Origin: an uncultured Candidatus Saccharibacteria bacterium
Lineage (GTDB): Bacteria; Patescibacteriota; Minisyncoccia; Phycocordibacterales; Zambryskibacteraceae
Reading direction: 5' to 3'
DNA: 52,061 nt
Assembly: GCA_964509605.1 (NCBI GenBank)
Contig: CAZDXF010000004.1
Span: 1 to 52,061 of the forward strand
A program made the position numbers and the translations under genes. Shown here in pieces: positions 13,777 to 48,332 of this stretch (position 1 is the stretch's first letter; each line of letters begins with the position of its first letter). The notes beneath the pieces were generated by a model. That model ran no database searches. It was not told the origin of the DNA and saw only the letters and a list, made by a program, of their open reading frames with translations.

Positions 13777-13892
13777 CCCGTTTAGAAGCAGGTCGCGGTC
13801 TACGAACTCTGCTGTATATTATATTTAATAATTTAATTTTATAATCAATCTTTTCCCTCGCTTAGAAGCCGTGACCGTGGCTTCTAACGGGA
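13777..13892 (-). repeat. 116-nt structured intergenic repeat, copy A (exactly fills the ssb stop to rpsR start gap)
   Basis: Colinear with 14331-14446. Positions 1-57 are near-identical (2 mismatches), the last ~29 nt differ at 2 positions, and the centre has diverged. The termini cccgtttagaagc / gcttctaacggg are complementary. Confidence 0.85.
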
Positions 13893-14330: not shown

Positions 14331-14446
14331 CCCGTTTAGAAGCAGGTCGCGGTCTACGAACTCTGCTATATATTATTTTTAATAATTCGACTCTATAAAC
14401 AACCCCTCTCCCTTTCCAGAAACCGTGACCGCGGCTTCTAACGGGA
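14331..14446 (-). repeat. 116-nt structured intergenic repeat, copy B (starts immediately upstream of the ssb ATG)
   Basis: See copy A. It has the same length and conserved ends, and it abuts the start codon in the same way (..gcttctaaacgggATG on the minus strand). Confidence 0.85.
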
Positions 14447-18634: not shown

Positions 18635-19906
18635 TTAAAAGTTTTTTAGAATTTTTTCAAAATTTTTTGAAGATTTTACATCCCCTATTATCGCCAAGTT
18701 CAAATTTTTTGTTTTAAATATTTCGCCAGCGAGTTTTTTTATATCTTTAGCAGAGACTTTTCTTACTTTAGCTTCTATTTCCGAAGGGATTTCAATCTTT
18801 CTTCTCAAAACTTCTTGTATTGCGCAAAATTCGGCAACTTGATCAGAACTCTCCAAGTCCATAGCCAAATTGCCGATGACATATTCTTTTGCTTTTTCTA
18901 GCTCTTTTGAAGAAACCTCTTCATCTTTTAATTTTTTATATTCTTCAAGAATCGCTTTTACCACCTCCTCCGCGCGAGAATTTTCAACCCCGGTATAAGT
19001 TGCCAAAAAACCGTGATCCGTAAAATCATCTGCCGATGAGCGAACATAGTAGCCCACCCCCATACCCTCCCTAATCTTTTGGAAAAGTCGAGAGCTCATA
19101 CCTTGGCCCAATATAGTGTTTAGCACCATAAGAGTTGTGTTTCTCTTGTCTTTAGTGCCAAAAGTTCTAACACCCAAAGCAATGTGGGCTTGTCCAGTCT
19201 TTTTATTCTTAACAAAAACTTTTGGCGCGTTTTGGCTCTCAACAACTTTTGCTTTTTTATCTTTTGAACCGTTTGAGATGTTTTTGAAAAATTCGGAAAT
19301 CTTTTTCAAAACCTTTTTTTCATCAAAATTCCCAGACACCACCACTATTGTTGATTTTGCCACATAGTGCTTCTTTCTGTAGTTGAAAAAATCTTGTCTC
19401 TTTATTGAACGGATAACATTTTTTTCTCCGAGTATTGTTCTGCCAGCCGGCTGGTCTCCGTACAAAAGTTTTGTAAAGACATCATAAATCTGCCGTTGCG
19501 GAAGGTCTTCATACATATTCATTTCGTCCAATATAACTCCTTTTTCTTTTTGAATTTCTTTTTCTGGAAAATTGGAATTTAAATATATGTCCGAAATTAT
19601 CTCTAAAAGATTGTTGGTATGCTTCGGGTGCGCTTTTGCATAATAGCCAGTAAATTCGTGACCAGTGAAAGCGTTTGTTTGTGCGCCTTTTGATTCTATT
19701 TCATGCAAAATATCCATAGAACTAGGTCTATTTGTGGTCCCCTTAAAACAAACATGTTCTAAAAAGTGAGAAATACCATTTTCTCTTTTTGATTCATATT
19801 TAGAGCCAGCTTCTACCATCACCATAACAGTAGTGGTGACGCTCTCCTTCATGGGCACCAAAATAACCCTCAGACCATTGGAAAGTGTTTTTTTAAAAGC
19901 TTTCAT
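18635..19906 (-). CDS. M16 (pitrilysin/insulinase) family zinc peptidase
   Basis: Inverted zinc motif HFLEHVCFKGT (HxxEH); 423 aa. Confidence 0.87.
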   Translation of the reverse strand: MKAFKKTLSNGLRVILVPMKESVTTTVMVMVEAGSKYESKRENGISHFLEHVCFKGTTNRPSSMDILHEIESKGAQTNAFTGHEFTGYYAKAHPKHTNNLLEIISDIYLNSNFPEKEIQKEKGVILDEMNMYEDLPQRQIYDVFTKLLYGDQPAGRTILGEKNVIRSIKRQDFFNYRKKHYVAKSTIVVVSGNFDEKKVLKKISEFFKNISNGSKDKKAKVVESQNAPKVFVKNKKTGQAHIALGVRTFGTKDKRNTTLMVLNTILGQGMSSRLFQKIREGMGVGYYVRSSADDFTDHGFLATYTGVENSRAEEVVKAILEEYKKLKDEEVSSKELEKAKEYVIGNLAMDLESSDQVAEFCAIQEVLRRKIEIPSEIEAKVRKVSAKDIKKLAGEIFKTKNLNLAIIGDVKSSKNFEKILKNF

Positions 19907-19944
19907 ATTGTTTTGAGTAGTCTATCTGAATGTTACAAATACTT

Positions 19945-19982
19945 CAAATAAACAAAACTCTCCCACCACAAGAGCGGGAGAG
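19945..19982 (-). terminator. Hairpin plus T-run directly 3' of the DGR template repeat
   Basis: The minus strand reads ctctcccgctcttgtggtgggagag followed by ttttgtttatttg. Confidence 0.6.
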
Positions 19983-19994
19983 AAATGAAGAGAG

Positions 19995-20116
19995 TTGCGA
20001 GGAGAGCGGGGTTGTTGACGCTCCACCTGTTCTCGAGCCAGTTCCAGTTCACGACCACCTTGTTGCCGTCCCAAATGAGGTACGGAACATTGCGATTGCC
20101 GTCACGGTTCTGAGCG
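19995..20116 (-). repeat. DGR template repeat (TR)
   Basis: 112/122 identical to 20514-20635. All 10 mismatches are adenines in this copy when read on the minus strand. This copy carries AAC/AAT codons where the other copy has varied codons. Confidence 0.85.
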
Positions 20117-20422
20117 TAATATATAAAGTACTATCCATATCACCACCCCTCGAACCATATATAGGTGCCGACCATAAATGGTCGGCTACTCTCGGGGTTG
20201 TATCGTATTCCGCATCTCATTCAGTAGAATGACCCACTGGGTTAATGCGCTAGTACTCTATACCAAGTATCTTCTTTTTTTTGAAGTTTCTGCATGCACC
20301 ACCCTATGCCAAGCCTTGACCGAGCATACTCTCGATGCATGGATACTGGATTCGGGAGCCGGAAGCCGTAACCACCGGTGACTATTCCCCTACTACCATT
20401 TTTTATTTTATCATATGAAAAA

Positions 20423-20450
20423 GCCCCGCCCGCCAATTGGCGAACGGGGC
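20423..20450 (-). promoter_or_regulatory. GC-rich hairpin downstream of the VR and target-gene stop (terminator and/or DGR homing-associated stem-loop)
   Basis: gccccgcccgcc-aatt-ggcgaacggggc (12-bp stem with a 2-nt internal mismatch), followed by a T-rich tract on the minus strand. Confidence 0.6.
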
Positions 20451-20502
20451 CAAAATCCAAGAGCCAAGGTCAAAGGGTCTAAGAGCACCAAGTGACCAAG
20501 GT

Positions 20503-20997
20503 TCAAGAGCTACTTGCGAGGAGAGCGGGGCTGCTGACGCTCCACCTGTACTCGAGCCAGCTCCAGTCCACGACCACCTTGTTGCCGCCCCAAATGAGGT
20601 ACGGAACATAGCGATCGCCGTCACGGCCCTGAGCGCTCTTCCAGAGAAAAACCATCTTACCCTTCAATTCCTCTGGATAGGTCGCCGGATTGGCGACCCA
20701 ACCCCTGACTAGGTCATCCTCGATGGAGAAACAACGGTCGATGAGACCGGTCTCTTTGAGGTGGGACTCGAGATAAAACCCCCTGATTGTTTCCCCCTTC
20801 TCTTGGGTTGGGAGGAGGTAGAGCTCCCACCCTATCGCCAACGGGAGATTGAAAGTTGCCGTGCCGTTGAGAACCTTGAGCAGGTTCTTGAGAATGTCTG
20901 GCGCCTGCCCCAAACGCGTGAGGTGCACCTTGGTGAAACCGGCCACCTCAAACGCATCAACGAGCTGGTGCACCTGACCTTCTGTGTATGAGGACAT
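20503..20997 (-). CDS. DGR target protein, 164 aa (GC-rich cassette 2); the C-terminal ~40 aa are encoded by the VR
   Basis: The ORF has an SD (aaaggaaatggggacATG). The VR spans the 3' end (..AQGRDGDRYVPYLIWGGNKVVVDWSWLEYRWSVSSPALLASSS*). Confidence 0.8.
   Translation of the reverse strand: MSSYTEGQVHQLVDAFEVAGFTKVHLTRLGQAPDILKNLLKVLNGTATFNLPLAIGWELYLLPTQEKGETIRGFYLESHLKETGLIDRCFSIEDDLVRGWVANPATYPEELKGKMVFLWKSAQGRDGDRYVPYLIWGGNKVVVDWSWLEYRWSVSSPALLASSS
20514..20635 (-). repeat. DGR variable repeat (VR)
   Basis: See the TR entry. TR codons AAC, AAT, AAT, GAC, AAC, AAC, AAC, AAC, AAC correspond to GGC, GAT, TAT, GGC, GAC, AGC, TAC, AGC, AGC here. Confidence 0.85.
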
Positions 20998-21152
20998 GTC
21001 CCCATTTCCTTTCTGGGCTCATGAGCCCAAAAGATTGCCTCTGCCCGAGGTAGGAGCTAGACCTGATGGTCATAGCGAGGAGACCCCAAACATGTCTGGG
21101 AGCTTTTCGCTATGACCATTGCAAGTAGTATCTCAAAGTTCTATCTTCCTTA

Positions 21153-21181
21153 ATTATACACCCACATTAGCTAAATGTCAA
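21153..21181 (-). promoter_or_regulatory. Consensus sigma70 promoter of the DGR target gene
   Basis: The minus strand reads TTGACA (21181-21176), a 17-nt spacer, then TATAAT (21158-21153). Confidence 0.6.
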
Positions 21182-21269: not shown

Positions 21270-22589
21270 CTATGTATTAAGAAAATCTGAAAGCTCAGGT
21301 TCGCCAACTCTTTCTTGCTTTCCAGTATCACGGTCTCGAACAGTCACGCCTTTGCCCTCCAAAGTTTCAAAATCAACAGTTATGCAGAAGGGTGTCCCTA
21401 TTTCATCTTGTCTGCGATAGCGCTTTCCAATATTTCCATTATCATCAAATTCAACCGAACCAAATTCTTTTTTGAGCTTTGCAAAAACTTCTCTCGCCTT
21501 CTCAACCAATTCTGGTTTATTTTTAAGTAGCGGAAAAACAGCAATCTTAACAGGAGCAATTTCTGTCTTGAACGCCAAATAAGTTCGCCTTTCTCCTCCC
21601 AATTCATCCTCTCTGTATGCTGAAAGCAAAACTGCCAAAATAGTCCTGCCGTGACCAAATGTCGGCTCAATAACATGAGGAATGAATTTTTCATTTGTAG
21701 TAGGATCGGTAAAGTTTAAATCGACACCAGAAGCAGACATATGTTTTTTTAAGTCATAATCTGTTCTATAAGCCAACCCATAAAGCTCTTTTCTGCCAAA
21801 TGGGTAATCAAATTCAAAATCAATCGTTCTCTTAGAATAGTGAGCCCTGTCTTCTTCTTTGACTTCAAGCTCGTGAACAAGGTCCTTGGATATACCCACT
21901 CTTTCAATCCATTTCCACATTTCCTCTCGCCACATTTCAAAATATTTCTGCCAGTCATTTTCGCGAACAAAATATTCAAATTCCATCAAATCAAATTCGC
22001 GTACTCTAAAAAGAAAATCTCGTGGAGCTATTTCATTTCTATAAGCTTTTCCTATTTGCGCCAAGCCAAATGGCAAATCCGGACGCATCGTATCAATAAT
22101 ATTTTTAAAATTAACAAACATCCCTTGGGCTATTTCTCCACGAAGATAAGCATTTGCTTTGCCTTCAACGGCGCCCAGAGAAACGGGCAACATCAAATTG
22201 AAAACCCTTTCTTCACCCAATTCGCCCCCACAGTCAGGACATTTTTTATTTTCAACATTTTCTTTGGCTATTTGATCCACTCTAAACCTGTGTTTGCATT
22301 TTTTGCACTCAATCAAAGGATCGGTAAAACCATCCAAGTGTCCAGATGCCCTCCAAACAGCTTCAGGCATTATGGTTGGAGTGGTAATAGCAAAATTGTC
22401 TTCCCTTTCTTCAACAAAATGTTTCCACCAAAGCTCTTTTATGTTGTGCGCCAAAAGAGATCCGTAGTGTCCATAATCCCATGTGCCAGATAAACCTCCG
22501 TAAATTTCAGAACTCGGGAAAACAAAGCCCCTCCTCTTTGCGAGAGATATTATTTTTTCCATAAGTTCTGTGTTTTTTTCTTTACTCAT
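21270..22589 (-). CDS. glyQS: Glycyl-tRNA synthetase (homodimeric class II type)
   Basis: RRGFVFPSSEIYGGLSGTWDYGHYG, FRNEISPR-like (YRNEIAPRDFLFRVREF), and a C-terminal anticodon-binding domain. Confidence 0.92.
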   Translation of the reverse strand: MSKEKNTELMEKIISLAKRRGFVFPSSEIYGGLSGTWDYGHYGSLLAHNIKELWWKHFVEEREDNFAITTPTIMPEAVWRASGHLDGFTDPLIECKKCKHRFRVDQIAKENVENKKCPDCGGELGEERVFNLMLPVSLGAVEGKANAYLRGEIAQGMFVNFKNIIDTMRPDLPFGLAQIGKAYRNEIAPRDFLFRVREFDLMEFEYFVRENDWQKYFEMWREEMWKWIERVGISKDLVHELEVKEEDRAHYSKRTIDFEFDYPFGRKELYGLAYRTDYDLKKHMSASGVDLNFTDPTTNEKFIPHVIEPTFGHGRTILAVLLSAYREDELGGERRTYLAFKTEIAPVKIAVFPLLKNKPELVEKAREVFAKLKKEFGSVEFDDNGNIGKRYRRQDEIGTPFCITVDFETLEGKGVTVRDRDTGKQERVGEPELSDFLNT

Positions 22590-24538: not shown

Positions 24539-25126
24539 TTATTGGCTCGCTTTTAATGCCTTATTGATACTTGAGACCAGATCCGTTTTATACCGCTCCA
24601 CCTCCTTTAGAAGCTCTCTTTCTATGGCGGAGTGAAAAATTTTAGGAGGAAATGGTTTTGGATCTAAAAAACCAAGATTGTGCAAAATTCTTGAAACAAT
24701 AACGATTTCCGCTAAATCAATTTCTTTTTCAGAAAAATTCTCGCTTTTTATCTCCTCCACGCCTTTTTCAACCACTTTAAAAAGTTCTTTGTTTTTTTCT
24801 TCGCCGTTCAACATCAAAAGAAGAATTGAAAATATCCTTCCAAAAAGAATTTCCTTCTTTCTGTTTTTTGGATTGAAATAAAGAAGATTCTTGGCTTCTG
24901 AAGCGCTCGTTATTTTCCAAGAATTTTTACCACGAACAAGAGAGCAATTTATCATAGAAAACGGATTGAGATGCGCTCGTAGCTTTGAAGAAACAACTCT
25001 GGCGCTTTTAGCAGATGTGTTTATGAGCCCCAAATCCTCGGTAAAAATTTTTAAAAACTTATCGGCTTCTCCTTGAGGAGAACTGCTCAGTACAAAACCT
25101 CTGGTCGTATAAACATGATATGCCAT
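24539..25126 (-). CDS. recO: DNA repair protein RecO (short form)
   Basis: N-terminal OB-fold pattern TRGFVLSSSPQGEADKFLKIFTEDLGLINTSAKSAR...LNPFS. Confidence 0.7.
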   Translation of the reverse strand: MAYHVYTTRGFVLSSSPQGEADKFLKIFTEDLGLINTSAKSARVVSSKLRAHLNPFSMINCSLVRGKNSWKITSASEAKNLLYFNPKNRKKEILFGRIFSILLLMLNGEEKNKELFKVVEKGVEEIKSENFSEKEIDLAEIVIVSRILHNLGFLDPKPFPPKIFHSAIERELLKEVERYKTDLVSSINKALKASQ

Positions 25127-28100
25127 TAGACAATTTCTATTTCAAACCAACTTTCATTTTCTTCCGACAAATCTGCTCCAAATTTAAAATCAGAAACTCC
25201 GCATATTTTTTTTATCATTGAAGAATTTTTTTCAAAAACATTTTTCATTTTAGGAGAAATACTTAAGGAAACATTTATTTTGTCTTTAGGGAGAAGACCT
25301 TTGAGCTTTCTCATCTCCTGCAAAGCTCTTATAAACTCCCTTATTTCCCCTTCTTCTTTCAGTTCTTCAGTAATTTGAGTATCCAAACTAACTTCGTCCT
25401 CCAATTTTTCAGAATAAACAACATCTTTCACATTTACTTCATCTTTTATAATTTCCAAAAAATCTTCATTTAGAGAAATTTTTCCTTTTTTTATTTCAAG
25501 CTTGCTTAAAGGTTGTCTTATTTTAATCCCAGATTTCGCCCTAGCTTCAAGTGCCAGAGAAACTAACCTTCTGGTCTCTCTCATACTACTCAAAGATTCT
25601 TGGCTGACCCTTGAAGCTCCTGGCCAATCTTCAAGATGAACGCTTACGAGCTCCCCTCCCTTGGTTATCCTTCTGTAGATGTCTTCTCCCCAAAATGGAG
25701 CAAATGGAGAAACTACCTTTGAAAATTCTTTTATTACAAACCCTAATGTAGAAATTGCATCTTCTTTATCCTTCTCGTCTTCTCCTTTAAATCTGTCTCT
25801 TGAGCGCCTCAAATACCACTGCGAGAGATCGGCTATAAAATCCCTGATTCCTCTGACTGATTCAAAAACTTTATAGGAATCCATATTTTTTGAAACTTTC
25901 AAAACAAGCTCATCAAAAAGAGAAAGTATCCAAACATCTAGGACATTAGAAACCTTTGGACGCTCTTTCGGAGCGTTTTCTTTTGAATACAGTTCGTAGA
26001 AAGACAAAACATTATTAAACAAATTAAAAACTTTTTTATTTACATCATCTACTGTTTTTTCATCAAAATTTTTTGCATCTCCGGGCTGGTTTACCGAATA
26101 CATCCAAAGTCTCAGAGGATCAACACCGTATTTATCTATCATCTCCCAAGGATCCACCGCATTGCCTTTTGATTTTGACATCTTCTGACCTTTTTCATCC
26201 AAAATATGGCCGAGACAAATTACATTTTTATAAGCTCTCCCTTTGCCAAATAAAATCCCTATAGCGTGAAGAGTATAAAACCACCCTCTAGTTTGATCTA
26301 TCGCTTCAGAAATAAAATCGGCTGGATAGGGAGAATTTTCTATTCTTTTTTTGAGATCTTTTTGGCTTAGAGAAATTTCTGAAGCGTTTTGAGAAAGAGA
26401 CATTGCCCCAGAATCAAACCAGACATCAACCACCTCTGGGACTCTTTTCAAAACATTTCCTGTCTTTTTTGATTTGATGACAACATCATCAACATAAGGG
26501 CGGTGGAGATCAAGTTCGAAATCAGAGTTTTTAGGAAGTGCTCTAAAATCAATCTCTTTAAATTCACCTGTTTTTACGATATCTTCTCCAGCATCTTCTT
26601 TCATTTTTATCGCACCGTTTTTACCAACCCCTAGTGAGACAGCCTCCATCATCCAGAGAGGGTATTCATGGCTTATTATGAGTATTTTTTTGTTGTTATA
26701 TTTTGAATCAATATCATATAAAAACTCCCCTACTCTTTTGCGAAGTTCTGAAAGATTCTCTCCACCTTCTGGTGCTTTTTCAAATTTTTCTGAAATAGAC
26801 GAAAAGAAACCGTGGTATTCATTTACATGCTTACCATTAAATATTCCTGTTTGTATTTCTTTTATCCTCTCATCAACAACAATATTTTTTTCATCCAAGC
26901 CTAAAATCTCTGCTACTTTTTTTGCAGTCTCTCTTGTGCGAATAAGAGGCGAAGTGAATATCAAATCTATTTTTTCTTTTTTGAGTTTCTTTGAAGCATC
27001 AAGGACTTGTTTCTCTCCCATCTCTGTAAGACTTGATGGGACCGAATCATCTCCGCTCACAATACAAGAAACATTTTTCTCGGCTTGACCGTGTCTCATT
27101 ATGAAAAAGGTGTTTCTTTTTTCTATTTTTTCTTTTAGTTCGCTTACTGAACCAATAACATCTGTCTCAGTGCCATCTTCCGAAATCCAAACTGGAAGCG
27201 GGGTGCCCCAATATCGCTCTCTAGAAAATGCCCAATCTTTTACATCAGAAAGCCATTCTCCAAATCTACCGTCTTTTATATGCTCTGGCTCCCAGTTTAT
27301 TTTCTGATTTTCAGAAACAAGATCCTCTCTTAATTGAGACATTTTTATATACCAAGAACTTCTGGCGTAATAAACCAAAGGGGTTTTGCATCTCCAACAA
27401 AAAGGATAGCTGTGCTCAAACTTTTCTTTCTTAAAAAGCAAATTCCTTCCAGCTAAATCTTTTATCACAAAAACAGCTGTGTCTTCGTCGTGAACAAATT
27501 TTCCAGAAAATTCTCCCGTGTTTGCAATAAAATGGCCCGAATCGTCTACCAAATGAAACTTTGGAAGACTGACTTTCGTGCCAAGCTCAAAATCGTCTTG
27601 CCCATACATTACCGCTGTATGCACAATCCCCGTACCATCTTCTGTAGTTACAAAATCAGCCGAATAAACTTTGTATGCGTTAGAAAGTTTCTCTTTTTGA
27701 GAATCAGAGATGTTTTGTGAAAGATATGGATAGAGTGGTTCGTATTCCATACCAACCATCTCGCTTCCTTTATGTTCTGCTATCACTTCATATTCATCAG
27801 TCAAAAGCTCGAGCTTATCCTTAGCTAAAACTAAAATTTCACCATTAACCTTGGCCTCTACATAAGTAATGTCTTTTCCTACGGCTAAGGCAACATTGCC
27901 CGGTAAAGTCCACGGGGTTGTCGTCCAAGCTACAAAATAAGCATCTGGGAAACCAATGATTTTAAATTTTACAAATACAGAAAGACTTTTTATTGTTTCA
28001 TAACCTTGAGCCAGCTCGTGAGAAGAAAGTCCTGTGCCACATCTCGGACACCAAGGAACCACCTTGTAGTCTTTGTAGAGAAGTTTTTTCTCATTTACAG

Positions 28101-28593
28101 TTTTTATAATCGCCCAAAGAGACTCCATATATCCGGAAGAATAAGTAATATAGGGACTCTCCATATCAACCCAAAAACCGATTCTTCTAGTAAAATCCTG
28201 CCATTCACTTAAATACTTCCAAACATTTTTTTTGCACTCTTCGTTGAATTTGGCAATGCTGTATTCTTCAATTTCTTTTTTTGATTTTATTCCCAACTGT
28301 TTCTCAACTTCAAGCTCCACTGGAAGTCCGTGCGTATCCCAACCAGCTTTTCTTTCCACACGAAAACCTCGCATCGTTTTGTAGCGAGGGATTGCGTCTT
28401 TAAACGCGCGAGCTTCTAGGTGGTGAATCCCCGGTCTGCCATTTGCAGTTGGAGGCCCTTCATAAAAAACAAAAGATCCCTCTGGAGATTTTTTCTCGAG
28501 GGTTTTTTTGAAAACTTCTTCCTTTTCCCAAAAAGACAGTATCTCTTCTTCTTTGAGGGCTAGTGGAGATTTATCTTCTCTCTCTGTGGCCAT
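25126..28593 (-). CDS. ileS: Isoleucyl-tRNA synthetase (type 2-like) carrying a nested histidine-phosphatase domain
   Basis: PPTANGRPGIHHLEAR (HIGH), WTTTPWTLPGN (editing domain), KMSKSKGN; 1155 aa. Confidence 0.95.
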   Translation of the reverse strand: MATEREDKSPLALKEEEILSFWEKEEVFKKTLEKKSPEGSFVFYEGPPTANGRPGIHHLEARAFKDAIPRYKTMRGFRVERKAGWDTHGLPVELEVEKQLGIKSKKEIEEYSIAKFNEECKKNVWKYLSEWQDFTRRIGFWVDMESPYITYSSGYMESLWAIIKTVNEKKLLYKDYKVVPWCPRCGTGLSSHELAQGYETIKSLSVFVKFKIIGFPDAYFVAWTTTPWTLPGNVALAVGKDITYVEAKVNGEILVLAKDKLELLTDEYEVIAEHKGSEMVGMEYEPLYPYLSQNISDSQKEKLSNAYKVYSADFVTTEDGTGIVHTAVMYGQDDFELGTKVSLPKFHLVDDSGHFIANTGEFSGKFVHDEDTAVFVIKDLAGRNLLFKKEKFEHSYPFCWRCKTPLVYYARSSWYIKMSQLREDLVSENQKINWEPEHIKDGRFGEWLSDVKDWAFSRERYWGTPLPVWISEDGTETDVIGSVSELKEKIEKRNTFFIMRHGQAEKNVSCIVSGDDSVPSSLTEMGEKQVLDASKKLKKEKIDLIFTSPLIRTRETAKKVAEILGLDEKNIVVDERIKEIQTGIFNGKHVNEYHGFFSSISEKFEKAPEGGENLSELRKRVGEFLYDIDSKYNNKKILIISHEYPLWMMEAVSLGVGKNGAIKMKEDAGEDIVKTGEFKEIDFRALPKNSDFELDLHRPYVDDVVIKSKKTGNVLKRVPEVVDVWFDSGAMSLSQNASEISLSQKDLKKRIENSPYPADFISEAIDQTRGWFYTLHAIGILFGKGRAYKNVICLGHILDEKGQKMSKSKGNAVDPWEMIDKYGVDPLRLWMYSVNQPGDAKNFDEKTVDDVNKKVFNLFNNVLSFYELYSKENAPKERPKVSNVLDVWILSLFDELVLKVSKNMDSYKVFESVRGIRDFIADLSQWYLRRSRDRFKGEDEKDKEDAISTLGFVIKEFSKVVSPFAPFWGEDIYRRITKGGELVSVHLEDWPGASRVSQESLSSMRETRRLVSLALEARAKSGIKIRQPLSKLEIKKGKISLNEDFLEIIKDEVNVKDVVYSEKLEDEVSLDTQITEELKEEGEIREFIRALQEMRKLKGLLPKDKINVSLSISPKMKNVFEKNSSMIKKICGVSDFKFGADLSEENESWFEIEIV
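26539..27117 (-). other. Histidine phosphatase (PGAM/CobC-like) domain inserted in IleRS (aa ~493-685)
   Basis: FFIMRHGQAEKN (RHG motif), SPLIRTRETA, and ILIISHEYPL (second catalytic His). The insert lies between ..WISEDGTETDVIGSVSELKEKIEK and DLHRPYVDD, segments that I recall being only ~10-15 aa apart in other type 2 IleRS. Confidence 0.75.
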
Positions 28594-28630
28594 ATATGTT
28601 CAATCGTATCACAAAGTTATAAAAACAAAG

Positions 28631-28660
28631 ACCCCCGCGACAACTTGTGTCGCGGGGTTT
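28631..28660 (-). terminator. GC-rich hairpin terminator of cassette 3
   Basis: ccccgcgac-aacttgt-gtcgcgggg with flanking T/A runs. Confidence 0.6.
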
Positions 28661-28742
28661 TCTTCACGCCGGGTTCCAATGACCGAAGCTTACGGGGTCC
28701 TCAGCCCTGTGCTTGGCAGTAAAACACGGCACGGCAATACGG

Positions 28743-29177
28743 TCAGGTCATCATCAGGTCGGAGGGGATGTCGACGAAGCGTCGACATCGGCCCTCCGGG
28801 TCCATGACCCGGGCGCCGGTACTCGGCAGGAGATCGCCGGAGCTCGTCATGAGCGCCGGGTACAGCATCGCAGTCGTTTCGTAAACGTGGTCCAGGGCCG
28901 TGAAGACGGCGCTGGAGGGATCGGCGTTATCGCCGAGGATGATGCTCGCGGGGCTCGCCCGCGAGAGCGCGTCGCCGGCCATGGCCGGGCTGAGGTCCAC
29001 GAAGATCGTCATCTCCATCGTGCTGGCGCCCGTCACGGGGGCCGGCAGGTCCTGCGTCGCGTTGTCGTACTCCATGACCTCATTGACCGAGGGCGGCGGA
29101 TCAGTCGCGTGGGCGACCGAGGCCGACATCGGCACCGCCACCAAGGTGGCGATGAGAGCCATCGTCCGAAGGCGCAT
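28743..29177 (-). CDS. Hypothetical secreted protein, 144 aa (GC-rich cassette 3, the most GC-rich)
   Basis: Signal peptide MRLRTMALIATLVAVPMSASVAHA and SD aaaggagtatgaATG. Hand counts: 28801-28860 is 43/60 G+C, against 24/60 for 28441-28500 inside ileS. Confidence 0.6.
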   Translation of the reverse strand: MRLRTMALIATLVAVPMSASVAHATDPPPSVNEVMEYDNATQDLPAPVTGASTMEMTIFVDLSPAMAGDALSRASPASIILGDNADPSSAVFTALDHVYETTAMLYPALMTSSGDLLPSTGARVMDPEGRCRRFVDIPSDLMMT

Positions 29178-29246
29178 TCATACTCCTTTCGGCTGGTTGT
29201 GAAGCCAATATGAGCGGATACTCACATTGGGTACATCTAACAATCC

Positions 29247-29275
29247 ATTATACACCCTTATTCACTTTTTGTCAA
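29247..29275 (-). promoter_or_regulatory. Consensus sigma70 promoter of cassette 3
   Basis: The minus strand reads TTGACA (29275-29270), a 17-nt spacer, then TATAAT (29252-29247). A second tttgacaaaaag copy lies 15 nt upstream. Confidence 0.6.
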
Positions 29276-29336
29276 ACAATATTTAGGCTTTTTGTCAAAA
29301 AGCTATATTTAAAGCCATTTTTAAGGCAATACCGCT

Positions 29337-43381: not shown

Positions 43382-44050
43382 TTAGAAATGCTCACCCACT
43401 ATAGCTAAAGCCCTTCTCATTTTCAACTTTTTCCTTTTCAGATATATTCCTTTTTTATTTTCGTACATTTTTCTTAGTAAGAAAATAGACTCTTTTTTGG
43501 CATATTTAAGTTGAATGACAGATCTTTTCTTGTTATTTGTTATATGACCCTTAATTTTTAATCTTTTAAATAGCTCATTTCTAATCCAAGATATGTTTTC
43601 TTTGCTTGCGGAAACAAATTCTGTATAAAACATAAAACTAGATCTCCAACGCAAATCCCAATACGAATAGAATGTTCCGTCTCCATCAAACAGTCCCCTC
43701 AAAAAGGAAAAGAAATACTTTTTAGGTATATCAACTTCTCCAATCACTTTAGACTTTGCTGGCATTAGTCCAATTCCAAGAAGAAATTTATAAAAGACAA
43801 CATCTCCAAACTGGATTCTGTTGCTCTTTTTTGAACCTTTTCCAGAAGTGGTTGTTCCAACCTTAATCCCTCTAATTTTAAAAGCTTTTAAAAAATTTTT
43901 TATTTGGTCATCTTCTTTAGAAACAAAAACTATATGCCTGCCGTCTGGAGAAAGATTTCCATCACTAACTAAAAGACCTATGCCATATGCAAAATCATCT
44001 GACCATTTGGTCTTTACCAATCTTTTTGGTTTTCTGCCCGTATTCCCCAT
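43382..44050 (-). CDS. Free-standing LAGLIDADG homing endonuclease (two-motif, monomeric type)
   Basis: Motifs GIGLLVSDGNL and LRGLFDGDGTF, ~100 aa apart; 222 aa. The stop lies 1 nt from the tRNA-Leu 5' end. Confidence 0.85.
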   Translation of the reverse strand: MGNTGRKPKRLVKTKWSDDFAYGIGLLVSDGNLSPDGRHIVFVSKEDDQIKNFLKAFKIRGIKVGTTTSGKGSKKSNRIQFGDVVFYKFLLGIGLMPAKSKVIGEVDIPKKYFFSFLRGLFDGDGTFYSYWDLRWRSSFMFYTEFVSASKENISWIRNELFKRLKIKGHITNNKKRSVIQLKYAKKESIFLLRKMYENKKGIYLKRKKLKMRRALAIVGEHF

Positions 44051-46802: not shown

Positions 46803-48272
46803 ATGAAATATATACTATACGCTCGTAAGAGCACAGAAGAAGATGATAGGCAGGTATTGAGTATTGAAGCGCAACTCGTAGAGTTGCAAGAGTATGCCGC
46901 CAAAGAAAACCTTGAAATTGTAGCTTCCTTTCAGGAAGCCAAAACCGCAAAAGAACCCGGTCGAATGAAATTCGCAGAAATGTTGTCATTGATTGAGAGA
47001 GGAAAGGCAGACGGCATTATTTCGTGGCACCCCGATCGATTAGCTCGCAATTCTGTAGACGGAGGCAAGATAATTCATTTCGTAGATCGCGGCTTGATTA
47101 AGTCCCTCAAATTTCCCACCTTTTGGTTTGAAGCAACCCCACAAGGTTTATTCATGCTCAATATCGCTTTCGGCCAAAGTAAATATTTTGTGGATAATTT
47201 GCGAGAGAATGTGAAAAGAGGTCTGCGACAGAAAATCCGTAATGGGGTATGGCCTGGCTGGGCTCCAGTGGGATACCTCAACAATGCTAAAACTCGCGGT
47301 ATTGATGTTGATACGGAGAAATCCACGAAAGTCAGAAAATTGTTTGAAATGTACGCCACCGGAATATATACGCTTCATTCTCTCGCAAATTGGTGCAAGG
47401 AAAAGGGTTTACGAGGCAATCTAGGCAAAGAAATAGCGTTAAGCAACGTGCAAAGTATTCTACAAAATATTTTCTACATCGGGCTAATGAAATATGGTGG
47501 GGAAATTTTTGAGGGAAAACACGAGCCGTTAATTTCAAAGAAACTTTTTGATAAGTGTCAAGAAGTGATGAGTAAGCGTGGAAAATTCCATTATGTGAGA
47601 AAAAAAGATTTTGCTTTTCTTGGCCTCTTGAAATGTGCTTCGTGTGGTTGTTCAATAACCGCAGAGAAACAGAAAGGTCATAACTATTATCGTTGTACGA
47701 AAAAGAAGGGCATTTGCCAAGAAAAGCATTATCTCCGCGAAGAAGCACTAACCGAGCAAATCACTTCTTATCTCCAAAAAGTTTCTTTGTCGAGCCAAGA
47801 TACCGAGAAAGTTTTGGCGGCGTTGGATAGCGAGCAAGATAAAGCGATAAAGGACACACAATCCAAAGTTGAGATTTTGAAAGAGCAGTTATCACAAATT
47901 GAGACAAAACTCCAAAAACTTCTCGATGTCTATTTAGCAGACGCTTTATCCACAGAAGAATACGCCGCCAAAAAACAGAGTTTGCTGTCTCAAAAAGTTT
48001 CGTTATCTGAAAAAATCAACGACTTTGAGACAAAAGGGTTGTCTTGGCTCGAACCGGCTCGTGAGTTCGTAAAGTCCTTAAATCAAGCCGCAAATCTGCT
48101 TTCCTCTCCCAATCCGACTGCAATGACAACATTTCTGAAAAACATCGGCTCGAACCATATTTTGCGAAACCGCCAATTCGTTTTTGCCCCCAAAATTGAA
48201 TACAAATTAGTCGCCGAGCGAAGCGAGGCGAACCTTTCAAACTTGTATTTTCCTGTCTGGTGCTCTCGGTAG
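46803..48272 (+). CDS. Large serine recombinase (resolvase catalytic domain, recombinase domain, zinc ribbon, coiled-coil)
   Basis: YARKSTEEDDRQVLSIEAQ (catalytic Ser), SWHPDRLARN, and CASCGCSITAEKQKGHNYYRC. The last 15 nt overlap the tRNA-Arg 3' end. Confidence 0.9.
   Translation: MKYILYARKSTEEDDRQVLSIEAQLVELQEYAAKENLEIVASFQEAKTAKEPGRMKFAEMLSLIERGKADGIISWHPDRLARNSVDGGKIIHFVDRGLIKSLKFPTFWFEATPQGLFMLNIAFGQSKYFVDNLRENVKRGLRQKIRNGVWPGWAPVGYLNNAKTRGIDVDTEKSTKVRKLFEMYATGIYTLHSLANWCKEKGLRGNLGKEIALSNVQSILQNIFYIGLMKYGGEIFEGKHEPLISKKLFDKCQEVMSKRGKFHYVRKKDFAFLGLLKCASCGCSITAEKQKGHNYYRCTKKKGICQEKHYLREEALTEQITSYLQKVSLSSQDTEKVLAALDSEQDKAIKDTQSKVEILKEQLSQIETKLQKLLDVYLADALSTEEYAAKKQSLLSQKVSLSEKINDFETKGLSWLEPAREFVKSLNQAANLLSSPNPTAMTTFLKNIGSNHILRNRQFVFAPKIEYKLVAERSEANLSNLYFPVWCSR
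48163..48263. repeat. IR-2 right arm (within the recombinase 3' end, reaching into the tRNA-Arg acceptor/CCA)
   Basis: See IR-2 left arm. Confidence 0.9.
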
Positions 48273-48332
48273 GAATCGAACCTACATTGGGAGATTAGAA
48301 GTCTCCAGTTCTATCCATTGAACTACGAGAGC
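48258..48332 (-). tRNA. tRNA-Arg (anticodon TCT), CCA encoded
   Basis: Reverse complement: GCTCTCGTAGTTCAATGGATAGAACTGGAGACTTCTAATCTCCCAATGTAGGTTCGATTCCTACCGAGAGCACCA. Confidence 0.88.

Follow-up and report, generated by a model that had tools for sequence, protein, structure and literature searches.

The stretch of DNA analysed here, referred to as the window (52,061 nt), carries a compact element on its minus strand between a glycyl-tRNA synthetase (GlyRS) gene and an M16 peptidase gene. Promoter and terminator sequences divide the element into two transcription units, a small target gene and a stand-alone RNA gene of a diversity-generating retroelement (DGR), the features of which are collected in Table 1. 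Both neighbours had been named by an earlier, sequence-only reading, which placed the peptidase after the template repeat (TR) and the synthetase before the target, and Pfam searches agree.

Table 1. Features of the cassette and its neighbours, in order of transcription (window coordinates).
Feature	Position	Strand	Remarks
Glycyl-tRNA synthetase (GlyRS) gene	21270..22589	-	Upstream neighbour; outside element
Target-gene promoter	21153..21181	-	TTGACA, 17 nt, TATAAT; 12/12 consensus positions
Inverted repeat, 27 bp, 81% complementary	21066..21119	-	In 5′ UTR of target gene
DGR target gene	20503..20997	-	164 aa; no Pfam family
Variable repeat (VR)	20514..20635	-	Final 40 codons of target gene
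CTTNG pentamer array, six copies	20452..20513	-	Directly 3′ of VR
Target-gene intrinsic terminator, GC hairpin	20422..20451	-	After VR
Extended -10 box TGaTAAAAT of TR RNA gene	20405..20413	-	Position conserved across family alignment (columns 114-123)
Structured RNA leader 5′ of TR (~280 nt)	20117..20399	-	64/65 family consensus base pairs kept
Leader box AAAAGAAGA (family consensus AAAUGAAGA)	20270..20278	-	Pairs with 9 nt directly 3′ of TR; covariation
Template repeat (TR)	19995..20116	-	30 A; AAY at eight of the nine varied codons
Conserved 13 nt CTCTCTTCATTTC following TR	19982..19994	-	Holds UCUUCAUUU (19983-19991), partner of leader box
Terminator hairpin (covarying) and T-run, end of TR RNA gene	19948..19982	-	avd stop codon immediately beyond in complete relatives
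M16 peptidase gene	18635..19906	-	Neighbour, at avd/RT position; outside element

A repeat search of the window recovered a direct repeat of 122 nt, present in two copies with 92% identity, one of them the TR and the other, the variable repeat (VR), lying in frame at the 3′ end of the target gene. Read on the minus strand, the copies differ at 10/122 positions, and 10/10 mismatches fall on TR adenines, while 0/92 non-adenine positions differ (hypergeometric p = 2.2 × 10−7, for a TR with 30 adenines in 122 nt). The sequence-only reading had aligned 112/122 positions, assigned all differences to adenines of the TR copy and estimated about 30 adenines there; each of these statements held on recomputation, as did its list of codon changes, which matches exactly (TR>VR: AAC>GGC, AAT>GAT, AAT>TAT, GAC>GGC, AAC>GAC, AAC>AGC, AAC>TAC, AAC>AGC, AAC>AGC). 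In the TR, eight of these nine codons read AAC or AAT and the ninth reads GAC. The same reading gave G, T or C as the replacing bases, which is right for G and T (8 A>G, 2 A>T) and wrong for C (0 A>C). This spectrum is consistent with that of the family as a whole (65% G, 21% T, 14% C; p = 0.57), and the proportion of TR adenines substituted, 33%, is close to the family minimum (family median 51%). Beyond TR and VR, no further copies of the repeat core were found in the 52-kb window. There are no VR variants on record: the target is alone in its 90% protein cluster, and the sole other assembly, a Logan contig, is identical.

The target C-terminal domain (residues ~56–164) was modelled with high confidence (AlphaFold pLDDT ~95 at residues 60–160), and the top Foldseek PDB matches to the model were C-type lectin-like (EMS16, MCL, BDCA2, rhodocetin), at non-significant scores (E-values 0.2–2, TM-scores 0.37–0.47). 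At and downstream of the VR coding end lie an A-poor 17-nt 3′ end common to TR and VR, the CTTNG array and a GC hairpin, each with a putative role in homing. The earlier description of the final 17 nt as IMH-like stands as regards the shared A-poor 3′ end, the label itself being an analogy only. CTTNG pentamers recur 3′ of the VR family-wide (mean 3.6 per locus, compared with 0.47 in shuffles), and the array is a candidate target-side recognition element. Hairpins noticed earlier after both copies are indeed terminator-like, at 20451–20422 for the VR and, followed by a T-run, at 19982–19958 for the TR.

The leader, TR flank and terminator of the window could be aligned with 68 family loci. Of the leader's 65 consensus pairs across these loci, 53 show compensatory changes, and the leader is therefore a real structured RNA; the window keeps nearly all of these pairs (family median 62.5) and adds two lineage-specific hairpin insertions. 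The leader boxes and CTCGCAACTCTCTTCATTTC were found in the window, and the duplex between leader and 3′ box covaries across variant loci; its single A·A mismatch in the window is present also in L003 and several other rows of the family alignment. Rfam gave no credible match for the leader or TR region. A predicted pairing of the leader CCAGUAUCCA box with the conserved NWNWL-coding part of the TR showed no covariation and is not relied on. All parts of the stand-alone TR RNA gene of the Patescibacteria DGR clade—leader, leader-pairing 3′ box and terminator—are thus present, and a TR enclosed in its own promoter-to-terminator RNA gene can be physically apart from the reverse transcriptase (RT).

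It is the homologues that place the cassette in this clade. Its usual layout runs target, terminator, structured leader of ~250 nt, TR, terminator, avd on the opposite strand, and RT, with avd at +16 to +420 and the RT at +330 to +1400 in 37/48 distinct cassettes (those with the exact 3′ motif and enough downstream DNA to judge). Since avd lies on the opposite strand and the RT further downstream, both are transcription units separate from the TR RNA. Two complete DGRs (L002 and L003) carry the window's target family, with targets 56–63% identical to that of the window, together with a bAvd (PF22296) and an RVT_1 RT with LGNLTSQ and YADD motifs. The RT family is large (≥586 genomic loci and ≥7,990 proteins) and forms a star-like radiation in which all are ~63–70% identical; choosing the host's RT by similarity to the RT of L002 was abandoned, the best Logan match coming from a different sample. 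Some genomes of the clade (for example CAIKZC01 and MFLL01) have two RT loci. The family motif had no matches in the viral contigs searched, indicating a cellular setting. With the adenine-only pattern and with target, TR flanks and leader homologous to parts of complete DGRs, the region is a genuine DGR hypermutation cassette, consisting of a target gene and a template RNA gene; the sequence-only reading had called a DGR from the pattern, and homology to complete DGRs now supports that call.

Every family part up to the TR terminator is present, and neither avd nor RT is found anywhere in the 52 kb. A six-frame [YF]xDD scan gave four matches, none in an RT context; Pfam detected neither RT nor Avd in 50 long ORFs of the window and four short ORFs around the cassette; and family-specific HMMs run against all six frames gave best E-values of only 2.4 (RT) and 0.14 (Avd). 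The absence claimed earlier thus held under each of these searches. A 100-aa ORF antisense to the TR (19930–20232, plus strand) was considered as an Avd and rejected, having no Pfam or Avd-HMM match. No remnant of DGR, Gmk or PemK was found between the window's ArgRS and IleRS genes, the site of the DGR in L002 and L003. The ArgRS–IleRS interval of the window is a 68% GC island. Exact-protein look-ups of the M16 and GlyRS products returned nothing, and the nearest M16 relative among species representatives is only 54% identical; the target was found only in a 7.1-kb Logan contig (L001, SRR15237813), which matches the window at 100% identity from GlyRS through the junction as far as S6. The TR/VR pattern, with any base allowed at the adenine positions, had no match among the genome contigs searched.

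Enzyme-less cassettes are a recurrent, partly clade-forming state in the Patescibacteria DGR lineage. Among 62 non-redundant evaluable cassettes, 44 were complete, 7 had a damaged RT or avd and 11 had neither, and in the small-target family of the window RT and Avd were missing from 10/12 cassettes. Seven enzyme-less cassettes form an exclusive cluster by leader similarity, with ~24% leader divergence; the window falls outside it. Two further cassettes (L198 and L199) likewise sit at the GlyRS|M16 site, followed by genes in an unchanged order and without avd or RT, in genomes whose housekeeping proteins are only 47–64% identical to those of the window; L198 is an ortholog of the window's cassette in a deeply diverged relative. 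The TRs of the window and L198 differ at 31/122 positions, nearly all of which are mirrored in each cassette's own VR. More generally, non-adenine mismatches between TR and VR numbered 0–2 of ~78 in nine enzyme-less cassettes (the exception, L197, had 6), compared with 7–16 of ~74 between the TRs of different cassettes in the window's target family (9–22%). Each VR therefore tracks its own TR while the TRs differ, so that directional TR-to-VR transfer continued well into the divergence of these lineages. MAGs with enzyme-less cassettes are LCQJ01, MHVR01, MHTS01, PCXM01, MFVH01, DATDWZ01, CAYIKP01, CAIQCQ01, DAHWFZ01, JBBUAI01 and GCA_040079895.1. The eleven MAGs of this kind were all absent from the ~140 RT loci sampled, which is weak evidence because these loci are a small part of the family. 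The reciprocal of such a cassette, RT and avd with no TR, was not seen among ~60 evaluable RT loci, two apparent exceptions having divergent leaders, and an RT acting in trans would accordingly need to come from a complete DGR.

The sequence-only reading had left two explanations, service in trans by a distant RT or decay, and these are the right two to weigh. On balance, and by a narrow preference, the cassette is taken to be a satellite of a Patescibacteria-type DGR that depends on an RT-Avd from another part of the genome; the RT is probably there, and homing may still operate. Against this stands an unlikely but serious alternative, that a complete DGR once lay between GlyRS and M16, that a recent, clean deletion beyond the TR terminator took avd and RT, that no RT is left in the genome, and that the TR/VR pair preserves the outcome of the last homing event and will decay. 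Damage to RT or avd is common in the lineage (7/62 cassettes damaged, 11/62 lacking both genes), and close relatives form a decay series, with a TR internally deleted (L230/L235), leader and TR lost (L200), VR and TR collapsed into a single copy (L270), and a decaying cassette with six non-adenine mismatches (L197). Moreover, four loci with visibly broken RTs (L018, L062, L066, L096) retain clean adenine-only patterns with 0 non-adenine mismatches, so a clean pattern alone is no proof of current activity. A comparison of L201 with L230, meant to show whether diversification continues once the RT is lost, was set aside, the two being too diverged (79% DNA identity) and the TR of L230 truncated. 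The complete DGRs retained with the same target family in L002 and L003, the lack of recorded VR variants, and the loss of a DGR core with targets left behind in Treponema denticola (PMC4891356) also fit an orphaned remnant. However, that account requires many independent, recent and similarly bounded losses. The RT is missing from at least 10 of the 12 cassettes of the target family; the seven clustered cassettes have diverged in their leaders with each VR still matched to its own TR; the same enzyme-less layout occupies the same locus in a genome with proteins only ~50–60% identical; and the leader fold has been kept by compensatory changes within the enzyme-less set, ten such cassettes alone showing compensatory double changes at 27 leader pairs.

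Two other explanations would dispose of the missing enzymes, or of the DGR, altogether. Mis-joining of the TR terminator to the M16 gene, in a genome that truly has avd and RT after the TR, is very improbable. The source is a metagenome assembly, and conserved leader boxes can mislead assemblers, as in L199, which apparently switches to another DGR's leader after ACTTGGTG; but the independent Logan assembly reads identically through the junction, more than ten unrelated assemblies have a junction of this type (L198 among them, at the same locus), and there is no junction repeat able to cause a mis-join. An ordinary duplication kept alike by gene conversion, with its adenine-only differences due to chance or mutation bias, can draw on the fact that 8/10 changes are A>G transitions, yet it is effectively refuted already and barely merits credence: all ten changes lie on adenines of one strand of one copy (p = 2 × 10−7), an asymmetry that gene conversion would not keep, and the A-rich copy has the leader and 3′ box of the TRs of complete DGRs, while the other copy codes for the C-terminal end of a homologous target.

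If the cassette is a satellite, an RT-Avd complex from elsewhere in the genome, likeliest from a complete DGR of the same clade, would bind the conserved leader and prime at the duplex between leader and 3′ box, and the TR would be copied into cDNA with misincorporation opposite adenines. The cDNA would then replace the VR; guidance would come from the A-poor 3′ end common to both repeats and from the CTTNG pentamers and hairpin that follow the VR. Purified bRT-Avd acts in vitro on DGR RNA supplied separately (PMC6182149). A split DGR would be possible in this clade because the RNA domain that would recruit and prime the RT sits 5′ of the TR within the RNA gene, and not between the TR and the RT gene. 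Whether satellite cassettes of this kind, a target with a self-contained DGR RNA gene, make up a heritable and functional split-DGR class in Paceibacteria, in which one RT-Avd serves several template RNAs, is in our estimate evenly balanced.

The Patescibacteria (CPR) clade corresponds to DGR clade 2 (PMC8144416) and to clustered Patescibacteria RTs (PMC11661182), and shares with the window its target family, a TR of ~120 nt, AAY codons, an A>G-dominated spectrum, leader, 3′ box, terminator and host lineage; unlike complete DGRs of the clade, the window lacks avd and RT beside the TR, as do at least ten further non-redundant cassettes. The prototype DGR of Bordetella phage BPP-1 (mtd-avd-TR-brt) likewise shows adenine-specific transfer from TR to VR, a VR at the 3′ end of the target, an A-poor shared 3′ end and a hairpin after the VR, and its template must sit in structured RNA pairing across the TR (PMC6182149; bioRxiv 10.1101/2023.10.23.563531). 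In BPP-1, however, a structured RNA of 140 nt, Sp, follows the TR and precedes brt, whereas in the window the structured RNA lies 5′ of the TR, which is followed only by 13 nt and a terminator. Moreover, avd-TR-brt form one operon in BPP-1, while avd is on the opposite strand in the Patescibacteria clade and both proteins are lacking in the window; the target is Mtd in the former and a protein outside any Pfam family in the latter.

Strains of T. denticola without the core DGR have VR-bearing targets whose departures from a known TR lie mostly on adenines, and have been read as cases of partial DGR loss (PMC4891356). The window resembles them in having a VR-bearing target in a locus without an RT, but those strains lack both RT and TR, whereas the window keeps a complete, structurally intact TR RNA gene matching its VR, and is thus no target-only remnant of that type; also unlike those remnants, its state recurs as a cluster across divergent genomes. 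Remote-target DGRs, known from cyanobacteria (PMC7517822) and from a two-plasmid reconstitution of BPP-1 in E. coli (bioRxiv 10.1101/2025.08.18.670894), act through RT-Avd-TR on a VR elsewhere, so that components need not adjoin. These systems keep the TR beside the RT, with the target remote, whereas in the window TR and target lie together and the distant partner would be the RT.

To our knowledge, every large DGR census starts from the RT gene, and cassettes that have a target and a template RNA gene but nothing else therefore go uncounted. Should such cassettes be remnants, the series from complete to RT-less, TR-damaged and TR-less loci documents the death of DGRs. The covarying 5′ leader and its duplex with the 3′ box provide a concrete model for RT recruitment and priming by a non-Bordetella DGR RNA, and so compact an RNA-only module could serve engineered targeted mutagenesis. 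If the satellite reading is true, RT-anchored surveys systematically undercount hypervariable loci in CPR genomes. Were the cassettes to work in trans, present counts of hypervariable surface or ligand-binding proteins in CPR bacteria would be too low, one RT could drive several independent template/target pairs, and the minimal unit of DGR evolution would be a target together with its RNA gene.

The window holds a direct repeat of 122 nt whose two copies, the template repeat (TR) and the variable repeat (VR) of a diversity-generating retroelement (DGR), are the only ones recovered by a repeat search of the whole window. On the minus strand the copies mismatch at ten positions, and A is the TR base at 10/10, exactly as the sequence-only reading had claimed (hypergeometric p = 2.2e-7, with 30 A among 122 TR positions). 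The codon changes it listed also match (eight AAY and one GAC), although of the substituted bases it named, G, T or C, only G (eight sites) and T (two sites) occur. Hairpins resembling intrinsic terminators, likewise anticipated, lie 3′ of both copies, and the cassette has GlyRS and an M16 peptidase as neighbours. The target protein belongs to no Pfam family, and nine homologues of it were found in the protein collection; its C-terminal domain gave a confident structure model, for which the top fold matches were C-type lectin-like and not significant. In its 5′ UTR, downstream of the promoter, there is an inverted repeat (coordinates are tabulated below), and two related cassettes, L197 and L198, instead have a different conserved 5′ UTR element in common (GGnAAACCTTAAGCC...GGATAAGAG).

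Features of the window. Strand is given where the feature was assigned one.
Feature	Position	Strand	Remarks
Target ORF	20503-20997	minus	164 aa; VR = its last 40 codons
VR	20514-20635	minus	
TR	19995-20116	minus	
Promoter TTGACA-17-TATAAT	5′ of target ORF		perfect sigma-70 consensus
Inverted repeat	21066-21119		27 bp
CTTNG pentamer array	20452-20513	minus	directly 3′ of VR; six pentamers
Structured leader	20117-20399	minus	preceded by extended -10 box
Leader box AAAUGAAGA	20270-20278	minus	9 nt; complementary to 3′ box
3′ box UCUUCAUUU	19983-19991	minus	9 nt; directly 3′ of TR
GC island	28594-29336		68% GC; peak 28800-29100
ORF in GC island	28743-29177	minus	144 aa
IleRS gene	25126-28593	minus	His_Phos_1 domain at residues 497-660
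Large serine recombinase gene	46803-48272	plus	
tRNA	48261-48332		
LAGLIDADG-like ORF	43382-44050	minus	
Direct repeat	13784-13892; 14338-14446		~110 nt; 84.5% identity

Neither a reverse transcriptase (RT) nor the accessory protein Avd is encoded in the window, as had been noted from the sequence. A six-frame scan for the RT motif [YF]xDD gave four matches, none in an RT context; Pfam found no RVT or Avd domain in 50 of the long ORFs of the window or in four short ones next to the cassette, where the same scans recovered housekeeping genes, a serine recombinase and a LAGLIDADG-like ORF; and HMMs built from RT and Avd proteins of the same DGR family, run on six frames, reached at best E=2.4 (RT) and E=0.14 (Avd). 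A 100-aa ORF antisense to the TR was ruled out as Avd by Pfam and by the family Avd HMM.

Two of the nine target homologues (L002 and L003) sit in complete DGRs of Patescibacteria MAGs, in which the target with its VR is followed after about 320 nt by the TR, then by bAvd in the reverse orientation and by an RVT_1 RT bearing LGNLTSQ and YADD motifs. The gene order ArgRS, IleRS, RecO, DUF11 protein, GlyRS, M16 is common to all three; in L002 and L003 the DGR lies near ArgRS/IleRS, and in L003 just 17 nt separate GlyRS from M16. The 3′-terminal 7 nt of the TR and the following 13 nt (CTCGCAACTCTCTTCATTTC) are identical in the window, L002 and L003, and a search for this motif found 28 loci in species-representative genomes, 78 in metagenomes and none in viral contigs, the genome records all being Patescibacteria-type MAGs, many named as Parcubacteria-group lineages. 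Nearly all family loci show clean A-only mismatches, the substituted adenines becoming G (65%), T (21%) or C (14%), with which the spectrum in the window is consistent (p=0.57); 33% of its TR adenines are substituted, toward the bottom of the family range (median 51%). The RT family is very large (at least 586 genomic loci; at least 7,990 proteins). The repeat pair is genuine and, given the A-only pattern and the homology to complete DGRs, its original reading as a DGR is right.

Other features of the window were also recorded. A GC island (genome 40% GC) between ArgRS and IleRS, where L002 and L003 have their complete DGR (and Gmk), encodes an ORF whose N-terminus resembles a signal peptide and which has no Pfam match. 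The histidine-phosphatase domain inserted in IleRS is conserved in L002 and L003. The serine recombinase gene abuts a tRNA, a junction that may mark an integrated element; the LAGLIDADG-like ORF adjoins a tRNA cluster, and in L198 an inserted LAGLIDADG ORF separates AI-2E from MetRS. The ~110-nt direct repeat flanks the SSB gene region, and the Logan contig ends at one of its copies.

Between target terminator and TR, a conserved RNA leader of ~250 nt, preceded by an extended -10 box, could be aligned across 68 distinct loci, in which RNAalifold gave 65 leader pairs, 53 with compensatory double changes, and covariation of the terminator hairpin 3′ of the TR. It has no match in Rfam and seems to be a DGR RNA leader of this Patescibacteria clade that has yet to be described; the window retains 64 of the 65 pairs (family median 62.5). 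The leader box and 3′ box covary in L118, L131, L140, L142, L151, L163, L180 and L181, with a few single mismatches, and their duplex is a candidate template-primer duplex. In the Bordetella DGR, a structured Sp RNA lying 3′ of the TR wraps the RT and pairs with the TR end to give the priming duplex (bioRxiv 10.1101/2023.10.23.563531; PMC6182149); in the Patescibacteria family, by contrast, the equivalent appears, from pairing, to be located 5′ of the TR. The TR RNA is thus a self-contained gene, promoter to terminator, with Avd and RT as separate units; in family loci avd lies on the opposite strand at +16 to +420 and RT at +330 to +1400. CTTNG pentamers average 3.6 in the 70 nt after the VR (98 cassettes), about 8-fold the 0.47 seen in shuffles, and may be a target-side homing signal.

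Cassettes with neither avd nor RT alongside recur. Of 48 distinct exact-motif cassettes followed by at least 1.45 kb of sequence, 37 were complete, seven had truncated, frameshifted or rearranged avd/RT and four had neither; a broader motif scan with a leader profile gave 44 complete, seven damaged and 11 enzyme-less among non-redundant evaluable cassettes. Their distribution is non-random: by leader similarity, seven (L201, L055, L227, L197, L252, L198 and L228) form an exclusive cluster and L232 and L204 a further pair, while 8/9 true cassettes with the motif variant CTCGCAA-A-TCTCTTCATTTC are enzyme-less. Within the target family of the window, two loci are complete (L002, L003), seven are enzyme-less with intact TR (the window, L198, L201, L197, L055, L228, L271) and three are enzyme-less with TR damaged or lost (L230/L235, L200, L270). 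Elsewhere, in otherwise intact cassettes (L062, L018, L010/L060, L041, L077 group), RT or avd was inverted, duplicated in part, frameshifted or shortened by internal deletion, and the segment 3′ of the TR terminator seems rearrangement-prone.

The same locus and gene order, likewise without avd or RT, were found in two ENA assemblies (L198 and L199): GlyRS, promoter, target, terminator, leader, TR and hairpin, then M16, AI-2E, MetRS, TatD, S6 and SSB. The shared proteins are only 47–64% identical to those of the window (SSB 72%), which indicates a deep divergence from the organism of the window. The TRs of the window and L198 differ at 31/122 positions, almost all mirrored in the VR of each. 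Non-A TR-VR mismatches number 0–2 of about 78 in nine enzyme-less cassettes (six in L197), against non-A TR-TR differences of 7–16 of about 74 between cassettes of the target family, and ten enzyme-less cassettes alone show compensatory changes at 27 leader pairs. Gene conversion as the cause of the TR-VR match was ruled out, since it would lose the adenine asymmetry. L199 (ERZ4903070) has the target of L198, but past ACTTGGTG its leader becomes the leader and TR of another DGR, which reflects either recombination of two DGR RNA genes or a chimera assembled through the conserved leader box.

Misassembly is an unlikely cause of the missing genes, since the junction is reproduced without a difference in an independent (Logan) assembly and many assemblies have the enzyme-less layout. 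We favour, as the probable though far from certain reading, a satellite cassette, in which a target and stand-alone DGR RNA gene would be served in trans by RT-Avd encoded elsewhere in the genome, probably by a complete DGR from its own clade. The chief alternative, to which we give a lesser but appreciable chance, is a recently orphaned cassette heading for decay. Such decay can be followed at one locus, where the TR is intact in L201, mostly gone through internal deletion in L230/L235, and absent together with the leader in L200; in L270 VR and TR have apparently collapsed, fusing the TR terminator to the target 3′ end, and the mismatches of L197 point the same way. Visibly broken-RT loci can keep perfect A-only patterns, so a clean pattern marks recency of the last homing rather than present activity. 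Also pointing away from service in trans, no RT-avd locus lacking a TR was found among about 60 evaluable RT loci, nor, in a sample covering little of the RT family, any MAG with a complete cassette besides an enzyme-less one; the leader of the window falls outside the seven-member cluster, and no VR variants of its protein are on record.

Such a layout is not described in three surveys, all anchored on the RT gene (PMC8144416, PMC11661182, PMC6602519). The mechanism family is classical; what differs is the layout, with RT absent, TR kept beside the target and structured RNA 5′ of the TR. Should the enzyme-less state be ancestral in these groups, homing would have gone on, and the RNA would have stayed under selection, without an adjacent RT.
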